Shown here: piece after piece, positions 51,093 to 60,686 of the stretch | Layout of the letters: each line of letters starts with the position of its first letter | Position numbering within the stretch: position 1 is the stretch's first letter | Source of the DNA: an uncultured Acidobacteriaceae bacterium | GTDB lineage: Bacteria > Acidobacteriota > Terriglobia > Terriglobales > Acidobacteriaceae | Direction: 5' to 3' | DNA: 64,000 nt | Assembly (NCBI GenBank): GCA_963850805.1 | Contig: CAWKNF010000027.1 | Location: forward strand, 43,201 to 107,200 | Made by a program: the position numbers and the translations under genes | Notes under the pieces: generated by a model | What the model was told of the DNA's origin: nothing | Database searches by the model: none | What the model saw: the letters and a program-made list of their open reading frames with translations, nothing else

Positions 51093-51199
51093 GCGAAAAG
51101 ACCTCCATCAGAAAACTGTAGCAAGAACTGTGGGCATGGGCAACGGCAAACTCCTGATAGTAGTAGGAGAGGAAGTGAGCGCAGGGACGATCCAGACGA

Positions 51200-51505
51200 T
51201 CAATTTTCGATGTCAAATTCTAGCGTTACTTCCTGCTCCCCGTCTCCAGCGAATGGGGTCATCGTGTCGGCGGAAAAATGGCATTCGCGAACCACTCCGT
51301 TGTCATTCAGGAAGAAACTCCCAGCCCGACCTTGACAAGCCATGAACAAGCCGACCACTTGAGCGAGGGATGACGACGGTGAGGCGTCTAAACGTCCCGA
51401 CACCTGAACCAGAGCCGTGTAGTGAGTCCCGTTCCGATGAATCGTGGCAGGAAGATCAATTTTGTTTGCAACTTTGTCCTTAAGCCATGCCGTGAAAACT
51501 TCCAT
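51200..51505 (-). CDS. hypothetical protein, downstream partner of the RusA-like gene
   Basis: 101 aa. Starts 18 nt after the stop of 51524-52288 on the same strand. Confidence 0.5.
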   Translation of the reverse strand: MEVFTAWLKDKVANKIDLPATIHRNGTHYTALVQVSGRLDASPSSSLAQVVGLFMACQGRAGSFFLNDNGVVRECHFSADTMTPFAGDGEQEVTLEFDIEN

Positions 51506-51523
51506 GTGTCTGCTCCTCGGCTT

Positions 51524-52853: not shown

Positions 52854-52922
52854 TGGTTTAGATTCTACGCTCACACCGCGTTGACCTTGGCACGAACCTT
52901 CGCCCGTATAATTTGTATCAGC

Positions 52923-53717
52923 ATGGCACCACTCAAATTCGGTGAGAAGCGCAAACTCGAAGAGTTTCTGGGAATGGGCGGGGGTTACGTCCTTAGTTTC
53001 TCGGATCGCACCTTCAGGGAGTTCGTCCACGACAGCACTGGGTTGGACATTGATGATCCCGAAGTAGGCGGTCTAGGTTCCAAGGGTCGTAGGCTTCGAC
53101 ATTTCTGGGACAATCAACCAGATTACATAGTGGGAAAGCTGATCAAGGATTTGATTGATTCCGTGGATGCTGATCCACCTGAGGAATCGCAGAGTTTCGG
53201 TGAAGTGAGGTATGGCGTCCGCCGTCCTGCGGCTTTTAAGGACGAATGTCTGAAGATCGCAGACAGACTCTTGCAATCCGCCCCTGTCCCCGACACGACC
53301 GTTATTTCCGTGCTGTCTCAACGTGAGGAGTTTGAACGCCTCGCCAGCGGCGTAATGGACAGCATCACTAAAAACGACCCGGAATCTGGGTTGGACAGGC
53401 TTCACACGTTCACTATGGCGTTCGTCCGGTCGCTATGCGAGAAGCACGGAATCACCGTGGATAAAGACAAGCCGCTTCACAGCGTGTACGGCGAGTATGT
53501 GAAGAAACTGAAGGAACTCAATCTCATCGAATCGCCCATGACCGAACGCATCCTGAAGTCGTCCATCTCTGTGTTGGATTTTTTCAATGATGTTAGAAAC
53601 AACAAAAGCCTAGCGCATGATAACCCGGTGCTCAACCGCAACGAGAGCTTGCTAATATTTCAACACGTCACCAGTGTCATCCGATTTCTTTGGACTATCG
53701 ACCAAGGGCACGACTGA
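52923..53717 (+). CDS. AbiJ-like abortive-infection protein (N-terminal AbiJ-NTD-like plus C-terminal Abi_C/HEPN)
   Basis: N-terminus KLEEFLGMGGGYVLSFSDRTFREFVHDSTGLDIDD...SKGRRLRHFW. C-terminus LDRLHTF...FFNDVRNNKSLAHDN (R-x6-H HEPN-type motif of Abi_C). Confidence 0.65.
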   Translation: MAPLKFGEKRKLEEFLGMGGGYVLSFSDRTFREFVHDSTGLDIDDPEVGGLGSKGRRLRHFWDNQPDYIVGKLIKDLIDSVDADPPEESQSFGEVRYGVRRPAAFKDECLKIADRLLQSAPVPDTTVISVLSQREEFERLASGVMDSITKNDPESGLDRLHTFTMAFVRSLCEKHGITVDKDKPLHSVYGEYVKKLKELNLIESPMTERILKSSISVLDFFNDVRNNKSLAHDNPVLNRNESLLIFQHVTSVIRFLWTIDQGHD

Positions 53718-53764
53718 TAGAGGTTGCTGGTGGGACGCCAATCTATGAAGCCGTTGGCGATGGG

Positions 53765-54787
53765 CTAGATAAAGCTGAAAAGCCGATTGCTGCTGCCGTA
53801 ACTTTGACGATTCAACTTTTCTACGATCACTTTTTGATCGTCAATTCGGTGCCACTCGACGGCGGCTTCTTCGATTGTTCGACCGTAAGCCAATACCTTC
53901 TTCTCGGCGTCCTCTACCGTGAAGAAGCCGTTGGTTTCTTTCGGTGGACGAGCAAACATGTGGATGTTGTCCGAAATAGAGGTTCCCGGTTTGTTGTAAG
54001 AAACATTGGCGAGTGGTGGGGTGTCGTTTGGCGGTGGTAGAGCTTTAGGCTTTCTGCGTGTATCAGACCATTTTTTATTCAGAGCGACAAGCCCCTGAAT
54101 CAGGTCTCTCGGAAAAAGACGAACGTCTATATCTGCCTCCACAAGTGAGACATGTCCGTACACCGATTCGTCTTTGTCCGGCATACCGTAAACAACTCGT
54201 GCGACTTTGGCATTGATCAGGCGTGTAGCGCAAGCTGTTTTGTTTGATGAGTTTCTTTTGGAACACGGCTCCAGCGTTGTGTAGACCGTGCAACCGCTCA
54301 GATCAACATTATCGACATCGTCGTTGACCTTTCTGAGAGCACAATATTCTGCGTGTCTTCCTTCACCCGTTTCGCCTCGAAATCCTGTCGCCACAACATT
54401 GCCCTCTTTAACGACAACCGCCCCGACATACGGGTGTAGTTCGCCGTCATTCTCAGGGATGCTCTTTCGAGCTTCAGCGACCGCCATTTCGCAGAATTTC
54501 CGATCAAAGACGGTCTGACCCAGTTCCGATCCTGTTTCCGTCAGAAAAATATCCGCAAGAAATTCATCAGGTATCGCCATATTTTTCAACTTCGTGAGAT
54601 GCCCACTAGCGATAGCGGTACTGAACATGGTGTACTGCACCGTTGCTTGAATGGAATGAGCACCGAGGTTGTCGTCAATGGTGTGACCACCACGGAAATA
54701 ATTCAAAAAGTCGGCGTAGGTGGTGACTGGTGCTTGAGTAATCTGGGGATAGATATATCCCTGTGGCAGCTTTTGATTGATAAGCAT
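53765..54787 (-). CDS. stand-alone RibD-type zinc deaminase with unknown N- and C-terminal extensions
   Basis: HAEYCALRK ... YTTLEPCSKRNSSNKTACATRLINAKVARVVYG = HAE / PC-x9-C deaminase signature with RibD-like spacing. No reductase domain. Start at ATG 54785-54787, 10 nt after the upstream stop. Confidence 0.75.
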   Translation of the reverse strand: MLINQKLPQGYIYPQITQAPVTTYADFLNYFRGGHTIDDNLGAHSIQATVQYTMFSTAIASGHLTKLKNMAIPDEFLADIFLTETGSELGQTVFDRKFCEMAVAEARKSIPENDGELHPYVGAVVVKEGNVVATGFRGETGEGRHAEYCALRKVNDDVDNVDLSGCTVYTTLEPCSKRNSSNKTACATRLINAKVARVVYGMPDKDESVYGHVSLVEADIDVRLFPRDLIQGLVALNKKWSDTRRKPKALPPPNDTPPLANVSYNKPGTSISDNIHMFARPPKETNGFFTVEDAEKKVLAYGRTIEEAAVEWHRIDDQKVIVEKLNRQSYGSSNRLFSFI

Positions 54788-54797
54788 ATATGGCGAT

Positions 54798-56030
54798 TCA
54801 GAGGCGACTGATGTCAACCGTCTGCATATGAAGGTGCCCGAAAAGTTCCTCCCCGGCTGCGATGTCAGCCGCATCCGGTTCGTATTCAGGGTTTGTTAGC
54901 ATCAGATCGTAGTGCTCCCCGTCGCGGTCAATAACCACGAGACAGTTCTTCTTCTGATAGTGAGCCAAAGCACCCCCGGCGAGCCTTTTGGCACGCCCGT
55001 GTCGCGTCGGTTTATCGACTCCTCTGCACGAGATAAAAACGAAAACCCAATCCTTACCATCGGCGTGAGCAGCCGCGAAAGTAAAACCGCTGGTCTTTCC
55101 CCGCATCGACTCAGCCACGTCATGAAACTTTCGACCCATCATCGCTCGCTCAGTCAGCCGCATGTCGGTCAGGATTTCCTGTAAGATCAAATAGTTCTTC
55201 CGTTCGCCTTCTTTGTCGAATAGAGCAACAGCATCAGGCGGTAGCCCGTCAGCGTAGTTCGGGTCTCTCGTGGATAGGGCATGGGCTACACGCTCGATTT
55301 CACTGCTGTAGAGCTTATATTCTTCGCTGCGCTCCAACGCCTCTCGCAGCAAGTCATCGTGAGTTTCGGTAGCGCGTCTGGCATCCGCGTGCCCTAAACA
55401 ACTCTTGAGGCTGTCGGCGATACCACCGTTCATTATGTACAACTCGTAGAAAGGCAATTCATCGCCGACCATACGCAGGCAAGCAATTGGCAACTTCCGT
55501 CTGGCATTCAGATATTCAAGAACCTCAGGCAGGGTTCGTAGTTGCCAGACGATGTTCAGGAAGTCGTTAATGGACATGTAGGTCAGCGGCACGCCCAAAT
55601 ACTCCAACGGCAACTTATCGGCGATCTGCTTTAGATCAACGGGATGCCACGTTTCCGCCAGCACAACTCCGTGGATTATGCGGGGAAGAGTGCTGAACTC
55701 AACCCTGCCTCTGCGTGGATGGTCACACCATTTCGGGCGGTCGTCAGGTCTTTTGATTGAGCCACAAATCGGCTTCAATGCGTCCTGAATATTCTTCAGA
55801 ACCCACAACTCGTTCTTCTCCACACTGCGGCTCGTGGGGTCTTCTTGCGCCTTCTGAGAAATCAGAATGCCGTCGCCCTTGTGGACGATGAGATGATCTA
55901 TGACTTCCTTTTCGGTTGGGTCGTTGTGCTTCGGACTGCGGAACACGAATTCCGAGATAAGTGGCAGAGACAATACCTCCCCGACCTGTCTTTCTGCGAA
56001 AAGCGTTCGTGTTGTCGCTGCTTCGACCAT
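54798..56030 (-). CDS. NERD / PD-(D/E)xK-like nuclease-fold protein with large C-terminal region
   Basis: ERQVGEVLS...EKEVIDHLIVHKGDGILISQKAQ fits a GE ... D ... (S)QK restriction-endonuclease-fold pattern. Start at ATG 56028-56030. A GTG at 56099 would collide with gene 56091(+). Confidence 0.55.
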   Translation of the reverse strand: MVEAATTRTLFAERQVGEVLSLPLISEFVFRSPKHNDPTEKEVIDHLIVHKGDGILISQKAQEDPTSRSVEKNELWVLKNIQDALKPICGSIKRPDDRPKWCDHPRRGRVEFSTLPRIIHGVVLAETWHPVDLKQIADKLPLEYLGVPLTYMSINDFLNIVWQLRTLPEVLEYLNARRKLPIACLRMVGDELPFYELYIMNGGIADSLKSCLGHADARRATETHDDLLREALERSEEYKLYSSEIERVAHALSTRDPNYADGLPPDAVALFDKEGERKNYLILQEILTDMRLTERAMMGRKFHDVAESMRGKTSGFTFAAAHADGKDWVFVFISCRGVDKPTRHGRAKRLAGGALAHYQKKNCLVVIDRDGEHYDLMLTNPEYEPDAADIAAGEELFGHLHMQTVDISRL

Positions 56031-56090
56031 GGTGGATTTCTCTGACAAGTCTGCTCCAAATACCCTATGATTGTCGAGAAGGAGCCAGAC

Positions 56091-56474
56091 ATGGCACACT
56101 TCCCGCCCGTTTACAGTGACGACGAGAGCAAGATTCTGATCGCCATCTACGAGAATCCCGACGTGTCATACGACACCTACGCGCTTACTCAACTCCTAAC
56201 TGGCATCACCGCCGCTTCCCTTGATTTCGAGGCAGCATTAAAGAAAACGCTGAAGGCTATTGAGCAACTGATCGTGCGAGGACTCGTTGACGGCAAACAA
56301 TTGAAGGGTGGTCTCGGCATGTATTACCACGAGTTGAAACTGAAATACAAGGGGAAGCAGGAAGCTATCCGAGAACGTGACAGAGTTGCGGAGTGGAACA
56401 AGCAATTGCCGAAGATCATCGCCGAATCGAACGCGGTGGTCGAAGAAATGAGAAAAGCAGAGCAGAAGAAATAG
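56091..56474 (+). CDS. hypothetical winged-helix-like protein with coiled-coil tail
   Basis: ATG 56091 preceded by AAGGAG. SKILIAIYENPDVSYDTYALTQLL...IEQLIVRGLVDG, then a charged helical C-terminus. Divergent from the nuclease gene. Confidence 0.5.
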   Translation: MAHFPPVYSDDESKILIAIYENPDVSYDTYALTQLLTGITAASLDFEAALKKTLKAIEQLIVRGLVDGKQLKGGLGMYYHELKLKYKGKQEAIRERDRVAEWNKQLPKIIAESNAVVEEMRKAEQKK

Positions 56475-56513
56475 ATTTCTCCTCCTGACCATCATCTGCA
56501 CGCGGAACTCACA

Positions 56514-56801
56514 ATGACCTTGGACGATTTCCGCCAATCTCTCACCGCGACCGAGCCGCCAGCCGGACTCACGCACGCGCTCGCTGGACTGTGGTGGGAT
56601 GCCAAGGGCGATTGGACGCGGGCGCACAAGTCCGCGCAGCGGGACGAAGGCGTCGAAGGTTCATGGGTGCATGCCTATCTGCACCGCAAAGAAGGCGATC
56701 AGGGCAACGCCGCTTATTGGTATCGCCGGGCGGGCAAGCCCGTTTGTCGGGAGCCGTTCGATGCAGAGTGGATAAACATTGTCAAGGTACTGCTGGCATA
56801 A
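56514..56801 (+). CDS. conserved small hypothetical protein
   Basis: 95 aa, GC-richer than its neighbours. WWDAKGDWTRAHKSAQ...WVHAYLHRKEGDQGNAAYWYRRAG pattern. Confidence 0.5.
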   Translation: MTLDDFRQSLTATEPPAGLTHALAGLWWDAKGDWTRAHKSAQRDEGVEGSWVHAYLHRKEGDQGNAAYWYRRAGKPVCREPFDAEWINIVKVLLA

Positions 56802-56813
56802 TCGGTAAGGGGG

Positions 56814-57473
56814 ATGACGCTGCGCCACAGTCTGTTCAAGTATTACGACCAGCGGATTTGGGCTGAGAAATTCCTCGACGGTGAGATGCTGTTCCGTTCC
56901 CTCGCATATTTTCGCGATTGTGAAGATGCCGTGCGCGGTGACGAGTACGAAGGCACCTCCCGGTTTTCGCCGGATGGTGGTTTGCAAATTACGAATCAAA
57001 CGCAGGGCACACAATTCACGCTTTCGGAATATGCTTTTGAATCTACAGTCAAAGCCAACGAGATATTTGTCTTTTGCACAAGTCGCAGGTTTGGGGACGA
57101 TCTGGCTAAGGAATTCAATGCCATTGTCGCCGTGGAGATCAACCGAATGCCGATGTTTTGCGAGCGAATTCGAGCAGCATTGCCGCCCACAGCTACATTC
57201 AGGGCAAGGCGCGTTGACTACTACCCGCAGTCTGAAGGTGGGAATCCACGCTGGGCGCTGCCCGATGATATTGCGACTTCAAAGCTGGACAAGTGGGCGC
57301 ATCAGGAAGAAACTCGGTTCATATTCTCGCTAACGGACGCCCTCACGTTCGAGAACGTAAAGTGTCAACTGTCGCGCCGTAAAACTCGGACTCCGGCTAA
57401 GCCTGAGGAACATCTCTCCCACCTGCTAAAGGTTGGCAATCTCCGCGACATCTGCCGCCTGCGGGAGTTCTAG
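56814..57473 (+). CDS. hypothetical protein
   Basis: 219 aa. N-terminal LFKYYDQRIWAEKFLDGEMLFRSLAYFRDCEDAVRGDEYEG is loosely reminiscent of DUF2971-type proteins. Not assignable. Confidence 0.5.
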   Translation: MTLRHSLFKYYDQRIWAEKFLDGEMLFRSLAYFRDCEDAVRGDEYEGTSRFSPDGGLQITNQTQGTQFTLSEYAFESTVKANEIFVFCTSRRFGDDLAKEFNAIVAVEINRMPMFCERIRAALPPTATFRARRVDYYPQSEGGNPRWALPDDIATSKLDKWAHQEETRFIFSLTDALTFENVKCQLSRRKTRTPAKPEEHLSHLLKVGNLRDICRLREF

Positions 57474-57516: not shown

Positions 57517-59103
57517 CTACCTGAATAACCAGTCGAGAATCTTCCCGATGACGCCTTTGCTTTTTTGCTGACCCGGACGGGACGGGGATGGGGTCGGAGG
57601 GTATGGGATTGTCTGGGGGGGAATTCCCTGAGCTTGCCGGAGCTTCGCCAAGATCGCTTGATTCTGAGACGCAGGCTTAAAACTTCTTATGGGAGAAGGT
57701 TTGCGTAGGGGGTTCCTGCCCGCGATTTTGTCAAGAACTCCGGCGTTATCCACAATAGCTCTGCCTGTTGAACCGCTACTGCCAAGTCTGAATGCCGCTT
57801 CTTCTGCGGAGATGAAGGAAATCTGCTGGTTCTGCGTAATACTGATTGCGAGATGTGAATACCGATACCGTTTAGAGGCATAAGGAGGTTCCATTAAGCC
57901 AACGACGCTGATGTGCTTGCCGACCCAACTTTGGCTTGGTTTCGGATGCAATGCTGCTAGCCCTTCCGACCACACACTGATCTTGACGATCTGCCCCTGC
58001 CATGGCCCGAAGTTGATGAAGACGTACGGTTTGCCATGACGTGTTCGAGATTCTTTGACTTCTACTATCTGCCCAATCAGTTCGACACGGTCTCCAACAT
58101 GCCTCATGCACAGGTCGAAATCTTTGGCATCGAGAACGGGGTATGCCGAGATATATACGCGAACCTTTTGCAGGGCTGGCGTCGTCGATATTTTGATTAC
58201 CTCGTGCGGGATGTTGCGACCGGAGAGAAAGTCATCGAGTGTCGGAATCCTTGCTAAGGGAGCTTTGCAAATAGACGCAAACCAACTGGCGTCTTGCGAG
58301 AAAGCCGTTTTTCCGTATAACAGGGAAAACACTGCTGAGGACTGTGGATCATCAAAGTCATTTGCTCGGAAGAGAACCCCATCCCCATCTGAACGGGTCT
58401 TGTCCCACAGGCTAGGGTCGGCTTCTAGTGCTCTAAGCGCACAATTCAACTCTATAAATGAAAAGCGATCCAAAGTGGCGTCAAACGGGCGCGTTCTAGG
58501 ACGTTCTGGGTGTTGGAAATTTCGGTGCCCCATCTCGGAGCTTCCTAGGGACTGAATCTCATCGACGTACATGCCGTCGTAGTCAATTAGCTGCAATGTC
58601 GAACCGTTCCCTGAGACCATGAGGTTTCCTGTTTGGACATCTCCATGCGCGATACCCTCACGCTCCAAGTAAGACGCCAATGCCTTCATCGAATTGATGA
58701 GATTTTGCAACGCGCCCTTATCGTGACGCCGACTTTCGAGAAATGAGCCGAGCGTCTCGCCGTTCGCCCACGTCATTTTGACGACGGGGTAAGCATGTTG
58801 ATTGATTCGGATTCCGTTAGGCTGAAATTCGAAATCAAGAAAATAAGGCGAGTGAAGCTGTTGGAGCTTCTTGGAGATCGCTTGGTATCTCCGTTCAAGC
58901 GCAGGCGACTCCTTATGAAAGCACCGGACAGCAAACTTGCGGGTGCGTGTGCTAAGCGTGTAGGTAAGGGCAAAACCACCACAAAGAGCCAGCGGCAGTC
59001 CAAGCCCCGTCGTGGTCACCGATCCAGTCTTGAGTTCTGGGTCGGTCAGAACAATGGGATGTTGCAGTGCCTCCTGATATTGTTCGAGACTTGGGTAGCT
59101 CAT
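57517..59103 (-). CDS. protein kinase-like protein with C-terminal OB-fold-like domain (TerY-P kinase component)
   Basis: VRCFHK (beta3 Lys region), catalytic HGDVQTGNLMV, metal-binding LIDYDGM. C-terminal DRVELIGQIVEVKESRTRHGKPYVFINFG is OB-fold-like. Confidence 0.75.
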   Translation of the reverse strand: MSYPSLEQYQEALQHPIVLTDPELKTGSVTTTGLGLPLALCGGFALTYTLSTRTRKFAVRCFHKESPALERRYQAISKKLQQLHSPYFLDFEFQPNGIRINQHAYPVVKMTWANGETLGSFLESRRHDKGALQNLINSMKALASYLEREGIAHGDVQTGNLMVSGNGSTLQLIDYDGMYVDEIQSLGSSEMGHRNFQHPERPRTRPFDATLDRFSFIELNCALRALEADPSLWDKTRSDGDGVLFRANDFDDPQSSAVFSLLYGKTAFSQDASWFASICKAPLARIPTLDDFLSGRNIPHEVIKISTTPALQKVRVYISAYPVLDAKDFDLCMRHVGDRVELIGQIVEVKESRTRHGKPYVFINFGPWQGQIVKISVWSEGLAALHPKPSQSWVGKHISVVGLMEPPYASKRYRYSHLAISITQNQQISFISAEEAAFRLGSSGSTGRAIVDNAGVLDKIAGRNPLRKPSPIRSFKPASQNQAILAKLRQAQGIPPQTIPYPPTPSPSRPGQQKSKGVIGKILDWLFR

Positions 59104-59118
59104 TGTCTGAAGCGCTTA

Positions 59119-59841
59119 TTAGAAACGTATCGCTAGCAATGTTGAGTCGTCGGTACGGATCGCCTTGCCTAACCGCGCCTGTGCAACTATCTCCGCTAAA
59201 TCAGGGTCACCTCTAGCGGCAAGAAGTTTGTGCCAATTTGGGTCGCCCTTTTCTACCAGTCTTAGAGTCCACTGACCAAGAGCATCAGTCATGCACAATA
59301 GAGTGAGACGAAGGAAGCCATCCAGTGACCAAACGACGCGGTGGCAAGAGACGAAATCACTCTCTGAAACGAAACTGTTGAGATTGTGTTGCGTAGAAAG
59401 CAAGGTTGGACGCGCTTCAAACTCAACAGCCGTGGAATAGGGCCAACTTCTTAAGACGTTGAACTCATCGTCCACTAGCAAGGCAAGGGTGTCACCAATC
59501 GCGACGATCTCAATGCTGTTGACGACGGTCTCGGTGTTGACTCCAAGAAGTGTGGAGAAACTTCCACGCTCGAACGAAGCCTGTTTCGAATAAGAAAGCT
59601 CGCTAAAGTTGTATGCGGTGGAGTACGAGATCGCCGCTTCCTGCACCCATTCTGGACTGATTTCGGGCTTCGCAATAAATCTCTCTGCAAGAATCTTAGC
59701 CCACGCTTTTGAGTCGAATGATTCACTTGCGCCGTCGCAGAGTGCGAATCGCCCCAAGGTTGTATCCACGCGCAGGCAGTCTTCATTCTCGTCCGGGGTC
59801 GATGGGTCTTTCGGAAAAGTTCCCGCGAATAAGACCTCCAT
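59119..59841 (-). CDS. PP2C-family protein phosphatase
   Basis: FALCDGASESFDS and IVAIGDT / CMTDAL acidic motifs typical of PP2C_2-type phosphatases. 15 nt upstream of the kinase gene. Confidence 0.65.
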   Translation of the reverse strand: MEVLFAGTFPKDPSTPDENEDCLRVDTTLGRFALCDGASESFDSKAWAKILAERFIAKPEISPEWVQEAAISYSTAYNFSELSYSKQASFERGSFSTLLGVNTETVVNSIEIVAIGDTLALLVDDEFNVLRSWPYSTAVEFEARPTLLSTQHNLNSFVSESDFVSCHRVVWSLDGFLRLTLLCMTDALGQWTLRLVEKGDPNWHKLLAARGDPDLAEIVAQARLGKAIRTDDSTLLAIRF

Positions 59842-59852
59842 GAAGATGTTAC

Positions 59853-60686
59853 CTATCGTAGCTGCGAAGCTCGCGTGCCAATATCGAAGAAATCTACAAT
59901 TTCTGGAGCTTCAGCGTTGAACATGAAGCCACGCGCTTCCGCCGTGACTTGATGACCCTTCTCTTGAGCAAAACGGAGGAGATGATCGGGTAGTTGGCTC
60001 GACATCCGAAAAAGCATCTTCGAGTAGGCGTCGGGCAGCAACATTTCACTTGAAGGGAATCTTATGGGGTCTGCACCCGCAGCACTCACATGGATGTTGA
60101 AGAGCAATGCTTCGCCGTCGTTTGTTCTAATTTGGCGCAGATGGGTTGCCAGTTCTTCGGGATCACCGTCCGTCGATTCTCCATCCGTGATGTGAAGAAT
60201 TGTCGGCGGATAGCAATCAGGGTGCCCATCGCACCAAGCAACCAAGTCTTCCGCAGTCTTGGTTAGAGCAGCACGCATCGGGGTTCCACCACTGGCTACT
60301 GCTTCGATCCATACCGGAAACTTCACCGTTTGCTCGGCGAGTCCACCCGCACCGTCGTCAATCCTTTTTCTTCTGTCTTCGATACGCAGAGGATTTGCTT
60401 CGATCTTGGACATAGGGTTCAACGAAGTTCCTCCAAGTGCCCCCTGAAAGCCATTTTGGACTCCGTGACCGCCATAACCAATGACTCCAACATAAAAGTA
60501 ATCGCGAGTACCTCCGGCGCTCGTACATCGGGTGACGAGAGTGTTCAACGTTCGATTTAGAGCGTCAGCAACGAACTGTGATTTGCTGCGCCCTCCTGCC
60601 ATCTTGTCTTCCATTGACCCAGATTGATCGACAACGAAAATAAAGCCTGTCGGATTTGCCCGACTGATTTCTGCTGTGTACGCCAT
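59853..60686 (-). CDS. vWA-domain protein (TerY-like)
   Basis: MIDAS motif FVVDQSGSM, plus later ASGGTPM and HITDGES. Confidence 0.8.
   Translation of the reverse strand: MAYTAEISRANPTGFIFVVDQSGSMEDKMAGGRSKSQFVADALNRTLNTLVTRCTSAGGTRDYFYVGVIGYGGHGVQNGFQGALGGTSLNPMSKIEANPLRIEDRRKRIDDGAGGLAEQTVKFPVWIEAVASGGTPMRAALTKTAEDLVAWCDGHPDCYPPTILHITDGESTDGDPEELATHLRQIRTNDGEALLFNIHVSAAGADPIRFPSSEMLLPDAYSKMLFRMSSQLPDHLLRFAQEKGHQVTAEARGFMFNAEAPEIVDFFDIGTRASQLR

Follow-up and report, generated by a model that had tools for sequence, protein, structure and literature searches.

Organization of the locus

The DNA analyzed in this study is a stretch of 64,000 nucleotides (nt) of contig CAWKNF010000027.1 from an uncultured soil bacterium of the Acidobacteriaceae (the whole stretch is called the window below). 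It contains two adjacent genes, encoding a protein of 410 amino acids (aa), here termed the partner, and a 340-aa zinc deaminase, which a preliminary description made from the sequence had proposed to be a new two-gene conflict system. The open reading frame (ORF) listing and a reading of the sequence confirmed that both lie on the minus strand, 10 nt apart. The current study identifies them as candidate conflict genes, a deaminase and a nuclease, and not as a demonstrated new system; the two are mobile and loosely paired, and do not make up a fixed new immune system of two genes. The main features are as follows, with their basis in brackets.

54798..56030 (including stop), minus strand: partner gene, 410 aa, family without annotation (ORF listing)
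54788..54797, minus strand: spacer of 10 nt between partner stop and deaminase start (sequence, junction comparison in 20 loci, ends of blastn blocks)
53765..54787 (including stop), minus strand: deaminase gene, 340-aa three-domain zinc deaminase (Pfam, PDB matches, family, AlphaFold2 model)

The stop codon of the partner (TGA, 54798-54800) is followed by the 10 nt atcgccatat and then by the ATG of the deaminase at 54787, whose own stop codon is at 53765-53767. Both starts were fixed by alignment of homologues, giving MVEAATTRT at 56030 for the partner and MLINQK at 54787 for the deaminase. As had been anticipated, neither gene could be classified, PADLOC giving no meaningful match for either, and literature searches found no description of the pair or of either family.

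Association of the two genes

Pairing was examined from both sides. For the deaminase, one genome per species was scanned (185,579 species genomes), which gave 39 deaminase loci, nearly all in metagenome-assembled genomes of Terriglobales and Acidobacteriaceae; for the partner, metagenome contigs were scanned, giving 80 partner loci. No partner homologue was present within 10 kb of the deaminase in any of the 39 genome loci, and no conserved neighbor of any kind was found beside them. Many of these loci have opposite-strand genes on both sides of the deaminase, which therefore stands alone. A stand-alone gene was likewise seen for P0125, a deaminase with 38 member sequences and 81% identity to the window copy.

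Of the 80 partner loci, 7 have a deaminase immediately after the partner (L043, L044, L049, L053, L054, L055 and L056), all of them from one close subclade with partners 83–90% identical to that of the window. No deaminase at all was present in 72 loci, and in a further locus, L076, the sole copy is divergent and lies upstream. The L076 partner, 98% identical and frameshifted, is the closest relative with readable downstream sequence. This locus has kept the genes on the other side of the partner (the wHTH-like gene, orf95 and orf219, see below), has an unrelated convergent gene downstream of the partner, and carries its deaminase (59% identical) about 3 kb upstream. Partner clades at 45–67% identity differ in the gene that follows, which is often convergent; in most partner clades no co-directional gene follows.

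An obligate two-gene system, with neighbors conserved across both families, was thus not observed. The proposed pair does recur on seven other metagenome contigs, and its two genes are not conserved together (0 of 39 deaminase loci; 72 of 80 partner loci without deaminase). Lack of co-occurrence elsewhere, which the preliminary description had named as evidence against a system, was found for most of both families and not for one subclade.

Mobility and decay of the deaminase gene

When the window was compared by blastn with all fetched loci, the matching blocks ended at ORF borders: 53765-54787 for the deaminase, 54798 to about 56030-56080 for the partner, 52905-53721 for the neighboring Abi_C gene (in L037 only) and 51195-51518 for a small ORF, orf101.

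Stand-alone copies of the deaminase often have a TATAAT-like box, either 12–20 nt or about 45 nt upstream of the start codon (seen in the 90 nt before the ATG in L001, L008, L011, L014-L016, L018, L020, L022, L023, L028, L030 and L033); the longer variant of this upstream region (about 45 nt) has TTTAGAATTC at its end. Stand-alone transcripts may thus be leaderless or have a very short leader, with the box travelling along with the gene. A reading of the sequence upstream of the window deaminase revealed no TATAAT-like box, so this copy presumably depends on transcription of the partner, and it would probably be expressed by read-through. A promoter and terminator scan of 53500-56600 gave sites that were no more numerous than in shuffled sequence.

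A tyrosine-integrase gene ends 22–23 nt upstream of the deaminase in L014 (8872-9978) and L035 (8849-9979), and remnants of the same integrase 3' end (encoding ..VNAVWA and a stop) were recognized by eye upstream of the deaminase in L013, L021 and L037. The presence of an integrase, or of its 3' end, directly upstream indicates that in many cases the deaminase comes first among the cargo genes of an integrative element. No viral relatives of the deaminase or the partner were found when IMG/VR was scanned with the two family alignments.

Among the assessable copies from species genomes, 22 of 38 were intact and 16 (42%) were truncated, frameshifted, stop-bearing or interrupted (L017, L019, L023, L025-L029 and L032-L039); the deaminase of L028 is split by about 4.3 kb. 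In a neighbor-joining tree the paired deaminases occupy at least four positions among stand-alone ones, and the window deaminase is nearest to the stand-alone copies L001-L003 (77–81% identity), not to the paired copies (66–75%). The junction sequences could all go back to one ancestral junction altered by later indels and allele exchange. Given the scattered tree positions and a possibly single junction, repeated capture and allele exchange would be indistinguishable.

The slot downstream of the partner

A comparison of junctions in 20 loci showed that DNA homology between loci of the close subclade ends exactly at the TGA of the partner. The 10-nt spacer is therefore a recombination junction at which the homology of the partner locus stops. 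The slot that begins there is filled in different ways. Where the deaminase is present, it starts 7–17 nt from the partner in most loci, 62 nt away in L053 and about 500 nt away in L054. Other fillers are a 336-aa protein (cl5) at 1–6 nt, a 279-aa protein with two C-terminal transmembrane helices at 10 nt, and further unrelated genes elsewhere. Pfam and PADLOC searches with ten of the alternative downstream genes returned almost nothing, the sole clear match being Hypoth_Ymh in one of them.

The gene cl5 was also found without the partner, and is itself mobile. The regions concerned are L123 4355-7017, L124 873-3535 and L120 6001-7017. In one setting the cl5 gene (338-aa product, no Pfam match) follows a 547-aa gene at a distance of 3 nt, with an integrase, HATPase_c_3, DUF6602 and Mrr nearby; the other setting is a Prim-Pol/Mom/SRAP element, and the partner is absent from both. 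An assignment of cl5 as PIN-like (WLDTSV...VVTDKR) was considered and dropped, since neither Pfam on 36 members nor a PDB profile search supported it.

The explanation favored here, held with about even confidence, is that two separately mobile accessory genes of Terriglobia have been joined into one operon in the window. A different explanation of the same slot is a modular two-gene defense, in which the NERD-like partner would sense invading nucleic acid or damage and control a swappable downstream effector. The tightly packed arrangement, with spacers of 1–17 nt in most subclade loci, is what such an operon would look like, and unrelated alternative genes in the slot, including that for a membrane protein, form an effector-swapping pattern. 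Also in agreement with this model are the filling of the slot by deaminases of several lineages in 7 of about 16 distinct contexts, the absence from the window deaminase of the TATAAT-like box of stand-alone copies, and the defense-island setting. However, the deaminase stands alone in 39 of 39 genomes, often with its box, the slot gene cl5 occurs without the partner, in most partner clades no gene follows in the same direction, and the 98%-identical partner of L076 has no downstream effector. On balance, modular defense is regarded as somewhat unlikely. Its fullest form, a new immune family of Acidobacteriota in which a NERD-like protein is translationally coupled to interchangeable effectors, including a three-domain deaminase that also acts singly beside integrases, is considered unlikely. 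The partner family and its gene-swapping slot provide a concrete case of island-gene recombination at ORF borders.

The deaminase

The deaminase was divided into three domains:

54503..54787, minus strand: N-terminal domain, aa 1-95, kept across the family, without Pfam or PDB profile match
54053..54502, minus strand: deaminase core, aa 96-245 (Pfam, PDB, alignment, Foldseek)
54347-54355, minus strand: HAE motif
54230-54268, minus strand: PC-x10-C motif
53768..54052, minus strand: C-terminal beta-rich domain, aa 246-340, conserved, without PDB profile match

The Pfam family dCMP_cyt_deam_1 (PF00383) matched residues 95-202 (8.4e-19, 68 bits), and MafB19-deam (4.4e-11, 43 bits) and Inv-AAD also matched above their cut-offs. 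The closest solved relatives by sequence were the deaminase domains of RibD/RibG (1e-11 to 1e-12, PDB). By fold, RibD was again closest (Foldseek probability 1.00, 28–34% identity over about 155 columns), followed by TadA, guanosine deaminase and dCMP deaminase, with probability 1.00 for RibD, TadA and the dCMP deaminases. These matches assign the protein to the helix-4 division of the cytidine deaminase (CDA)-fold zinc deaminase superfamily. The zinc motifs noticed earlier are real, with a spacing of 10 residues in the window protein (C175...C186) and the described 9 in some relatives. In the family alignment H145-A-E147, P174-C175 and C186 are invariant. The deaminase is very probably active as an enzyme, because H145, E147, C175 and C186 are all invariant.

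The loop between the cysteines contains the invariant residues R178 and K183, and D204 is also invariant. These three align with the phosphate- and ribose-binding positions of Bacillus subtilis RibG, and on this ground the substrate would be a phosphorylated pyrimidine nucleotide. The register of the B. subtilis RibG sequence in this alignment agrees with the match to 2b3z.

The regions flanking the core, predicted earlier to be novel extensions, had no significant relative in Pfam or in PDB profile searches, as expected; the N-terminal one comprises about 95 aa and not 125, the first residue of the Pfam match being 95. Both flanks (1-95 and 246-340) are conserved to the same degree as the core. 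In the AlphaFold2 model (predicted local distance difference test, pLDDT, 88) they are confidently predicted as folded domains, the C-terminal one with four strands, a helix and a strand. The family is large and very uniform, with at least 120 clusters at 65–99% identity, those listed all being full-length (about 335–340 aa), and it comes mainly from Terriglobia. An exact look-up of the window deaminase gave no record; the JGI label for the family is 'pyrimidine deaminase RibD-like protein'. A second deaminase paralogue, 38% identical, was noted in L002 (7126-7617, minus strand), 3 kb from the main copy.

The earlier view that the protein is RibD-related and lacks the reductase domain was supported by Pfam, NCBIfam, PDB and Foldseek. 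The RibD equivalog TIGR00326 scored 65 bits against a cut-off of 156.35, with profile positions 4-118 of 343 matched. No Pfam or NCBIfam match extended past residue 224, the C-terminal 95 aa had no PDB relative, and tblastn with RibG detected no reductase anywhere in the window. Judged by these profile comparisons, the deaminase is not RibD.

An ordinary metabolic role, for instance in the deamination of pyrimidines, pterins or flavin precursors, with the gene lying by chance in a variable region beside an unrelated neighbor, would fit the closeness of RibD deaminase domains, the RibD-like name given by JGI and the housekeeping genes next to some stand-alone copies. Such a role is distinctly unlikely in view of the low RibD score (65 vs 156 bits, deaminase part only), the missing reductase, the changed substrate motifs (see below) and the two extra conserved domains. 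The distribution is patchy (39 of 185,579 species), no metabolic neighbor is conserved, 42% of copies are degraded, and some adjoin integrases, all of which also argue against it.

The many degraded copies, as expected of a costly gene, and the matches above cut-off to MafB19-deam and Inv-AAD could instead suggest a toxin-antitoxin or toxin-immunity pair, with a deaminase toxin restrained by the upstream partner. However, the toxin-model matches are weaker than that of dCMP_cyt_deam_1 (43 vs 68 bits), the protein lacks secretion and trafficking domains, no conserved neighbor could serve as immunity gene, and 22 intact deaminase copies exist without the partner. This arrangement is therefore rated as very improbable.

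The partner protein

The partner belongs to a family of proteins of about 400–430 aa, with 291 word-indexed homologues and 694 representative clusters at E<=1e-3. Searches of Pfam, NCBIfam, PHROG and PADLOC with the partner gave no match, nor did single-sequence or profile searches of the PDB. The AlphaFold2 model (pLDDT 87, predicted template modelling score 0.87) consists of an N-terminal alpha/beta domain, a helical middle part and a C-terminal alpha/beta domain. One part was assigned to a likely fold:

55641..56009, minus strand: N-terminal alpha/beta domain, about aa 8-130, NERD / PD-(D/E)xK-like (fold order, invariant residues, weak matches)

When family members as distant as 20% identity are aligned, E42, D45, K60 and R295 are the only invariant residues. 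The motif pointed out in the preliminary description (EVIDHLIV...ISQK) thus holds, as it contains E42, D45 and K60, and its reading as NERD or PD-(D/E)xK is plausible. In the model D45 opens strand 2 and K60 closes strand 3 of the N-terminal domain, and the element order (helix-strand-strand-strand-helix) fits the PD-(D/E)xK core. S58 occupies the acidic position of the (D/E)xK site, and the invariant E42 might substitute for the missing acidic residue.

Matches to NERD (PF08378) were obtained for 5 of 42 family members, with E values of 0.0012–0.1 and at most 19.8 bits, compared with a gathering threshold of 22.1. They always covered the first 90 or so residues, and NERD was the only recurrent family; the window partner itself gave none. 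Foldseek matches of the model were weak (E>=0.026, TM<=0.27), mostly to PD-(D/E)xK nucleases, the list including Nt.BspD6I, Cas4 SSO0001, McrC, HamA, Can2, Cdn1, the R2 endonuclease and tRNA splicing endonucleases. Nothing was found at E<0.01 against the PDB or BFVD. Taken together, a NERD / PD-(D/E)xK-type N-terminal domain is plausible, and the partner would be a nuclease dependent on metal.

Proposed function and its assessment

Among 138 genes neighboring stand-alone deaminases, the recurrent Pfam families were integrases (4) and HEPN_AbiU2 (2). Other neighbors were one Kiwa pair, a methyltransferase, PD-T4-6, mad2 and many housekeeping genes. The Pfam search of the same 138 neighbors also detected two deaminase-domain proteins. 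Near the partner loci, type I restriction-modification, IS3, ParB-like and ArdC-like genes were seen, the last identified by eye. These neighborhoods, taken as raw counts, fit accessory conflict genes, and both genes may act in conflict with mobile elements or phages.

In the mechanism proposed for two joined mobile genes, hydrolytic deamination by the deaminase would act on phosphorylated pyrimidine nucleotides, with a cytidine or deoxycytidine nucleotide as the most likely substrate, so that the nucleotide pool would be corrupted or depleted, and the flanking domains of the enzyme may gate this activity. The deaminase and the partner would each be able to work alone; in the window they are presumably co-expressed, and may or may not cooperate. 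In this account the gene anatomy, family membership, mosaicism and absence of obligate pairing are observed, and the co-transcription, substrate class, nuclease activity and defense role are proposed.

Several observations weigh against this explanation. The deaminase is the commonest downstream gene in the close subclade, occurring in 7 of about 16 distinct contexts when near-duplicate contigs are counted once. Set against 39 of 185,579 species genomes, this frequency implies some functional or recombinational link there; the association exceeds chance within the close subclade, although no family-wide system exists. Support for the partner as a nuclease from NERD and Foldseek stays below significance thresholds. 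The proposed defense role is drawn from neighborhood, and few of the 138 neighbors are known defense genes, in raw counts. Finally, RibG N23 aligns with the invariant H118, and the DPNP of RibG aligns with D204-K-D-E (DKDE). The Asn before strand 1 and the D-P-N-P motif bind substrate in RibG, and with both changed the specificity of the deaminase could be something else entirely.

Of most interest here are the stand-alone three-domain deaminase and the slot with its exchanged genes. The defense repertoire of Acidobacteriota is almost unstudied. If the deaminase is an immune effector, its two conserved flanking domains are candidates for new sensor or regulatory modules. If the two genes are mere neighbors, their tight spacing in one genome is no evidence of a system, and the stand-alone deaminase is the unit worth testing.

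Setting in the window

The other features around the pair are the following:

52881..53717, plus strand: Abi_C-domain protein, convergent with the deaminase (Pfam PF14355, 4.4e-12)
56067..56474, plus strand: winged helix-turn-helix (wHTH)-like gene, 135 aa, divergent; context, membership in the pair unsupported (weak matches)
56514-56801: orf95, 95-aa protein, between the partner and the TerY-P triad
56814-57473: orf219, between the partner and the TerY-P triad (PHROG 13198, unknown function, 1.2e-14)
57517..60686, minus strand: TerY-P triad of STK_OB kinase, PP2C phosphatase and TerY vWA protein (PADLOC)
51195-51518, minus strand: orf101, 101 aa (blastn recurrence)

The TerY-P triad is complete, with very strong PADLOC matches for TerY (3e-154), PP2C (1.5e-85) and STK_OB (5e-229). 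From about 49 kb to the window end the G+C content falls from about 0.57 to about 0.51. With TerY-P, Abi_C and low G+C content, the setting of the pair looks like a defense-type island. The preliminary description had placed the pair between an AbiJ-like gene and TerY-P; these neighbors are real, but three ORFs (the wHTH-like gene, orf95 and orf219) precede the triad. In none of the other fetched loci did the triad lie beside the pair.

The wHTH-like gene, which had been suggested as a regulator of the pair, gave weak matches to HU-HIG (E 0.0099, Pfam) and to a PHROG 'transcriptional regulator' (E 0.027). It adjoins the partner only in L040, L060 and L076, all of them relatives at >=95% identity, which does not support it as a part or regulator of the pair. 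A 43%-identical wHTH-like homologue was observed in L032 (9590-9985), co-directional with and 16–30 nt upstream of a degraded deaminase without partner.

Several of the surrounding genes were found in other loci. Relatives of orf95 at about 80% identity occur near cl5, partner genes and a deaminase (L123/L124, L125, L060, L076 and L023), and orf219 is 92% identical in L076. Two further kinds of locus with a deaminase (L055/L056; L032) contain orf101 at 82–83% DNA identity, which indicates that it is another travelling island gene. The Abi_C gene of the window is present in L037 (10834-11648) at 87% DNA and 90–95% aa identity. The L037 deaminase is degraded, more divergent (71%), without partner and convergent with the Abi_C gene, so that this locus and the window have the right-hand flank of the deaminase in common and a different left-hand flank.

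Comparison with known systems

Compared with RibD/RibG (PDB 2g6v, 2b3z, 3zpc), the deaminase shares 28–38% identity over about 110–160 aa, the HxE motif and the long insert between the cysteines. Unlike RibD, it has no reductase, carries two extra conserved domains, and shows a mobile, patchy distribution with frequent decay.

NERD (PF08378) occurs, for example, as the nuclease domain of Nhi-type defense proteins. The partner resembles NERD proteins in that the N-terminal 90 or so residues of several of its relatives align consistently, below the gathering threshold, with the domain, and in its E...D...xK-type pattern. It differs from NERD/Nhi proteins in having Ser before xK in place of Asp or Glu, in the absence of a helicase, and in a C-terminal two-thirds that has no assignment.

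The polymorphic-toxin deaminases (MafB19-deam, SCP1.201-like; Iyer et al. 2011, PMC3239186) are also CDA-fold deaminases of conflict systems. The window deaminase, in contrast, is a stand-alone protein of 340 aa and not the tip of a large secreted toxin, has no conserved immunity or downstream gene, and is better matched by the generic nucleotide-deaminase model and by RibD.

In Kongming (KomABC), dITP made by a deaminase is an immune signal, and that deaminase has an adenosine deaminase fold (ADA, PF00962) with HAM1 and SIR2 partners (bioRxiv 10.1101/2024.12.20.629578). The likeness lies in a deaminase encoded in a putative immune operon, the product of which could be a signal and not a poison. 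Given this dITP precedent and the tight coupling of the pair in the window, the order of action could be reversed, the deaminase making a modified-nucleotide signal upon which the NERD-like nuclease kills. However, Pfam found no ADA (PF00962), HAM1 or SIR2 in ten proteins scanned around the locus, in sister loci the slot of the deaminase holds genes that do not look enzymatic, and both genes mostly occur without each other, making such a scheme highly unlikely.

The bacterial dCTP deaminase defense gene acts by nucleotide depletion (bioRxiv 10.1101/2021.04.26.441389). Like this dCTPase and AvcD of AvcID (PMC10511110), the window protein is a single-protein CDA-fold zinc deaminase and a candidate nucleotide-directed effector, and a functional analogy with them is proposed. 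Unlike them, it has no kinase-like or P-loop N-terminal domain (Pfam), and the PADLOC dCTPase model gave only a 46-residue, 21-bit match around the zinc site (deaminase residues 145-200 against profile positions 440-485 of 630). AvcID is a type III toxin-antitoxin system in which an antitoxin sRNA lies upstream of AvcD, a P-loop NTPase plus dCMP deaminase; in the window, where no search aimed at such an RNA was made, the 10 nt upstream of the deaminase abut another ORF. The architecture differs from those of dCTP deaminase and RADAR, as the preliminary description had held, and from those of AvcD and Kongming. If the deaminase is an immune effector, it would represent a third architecture of a CDA-fold nucleotide deaminase in bacterial immunity.

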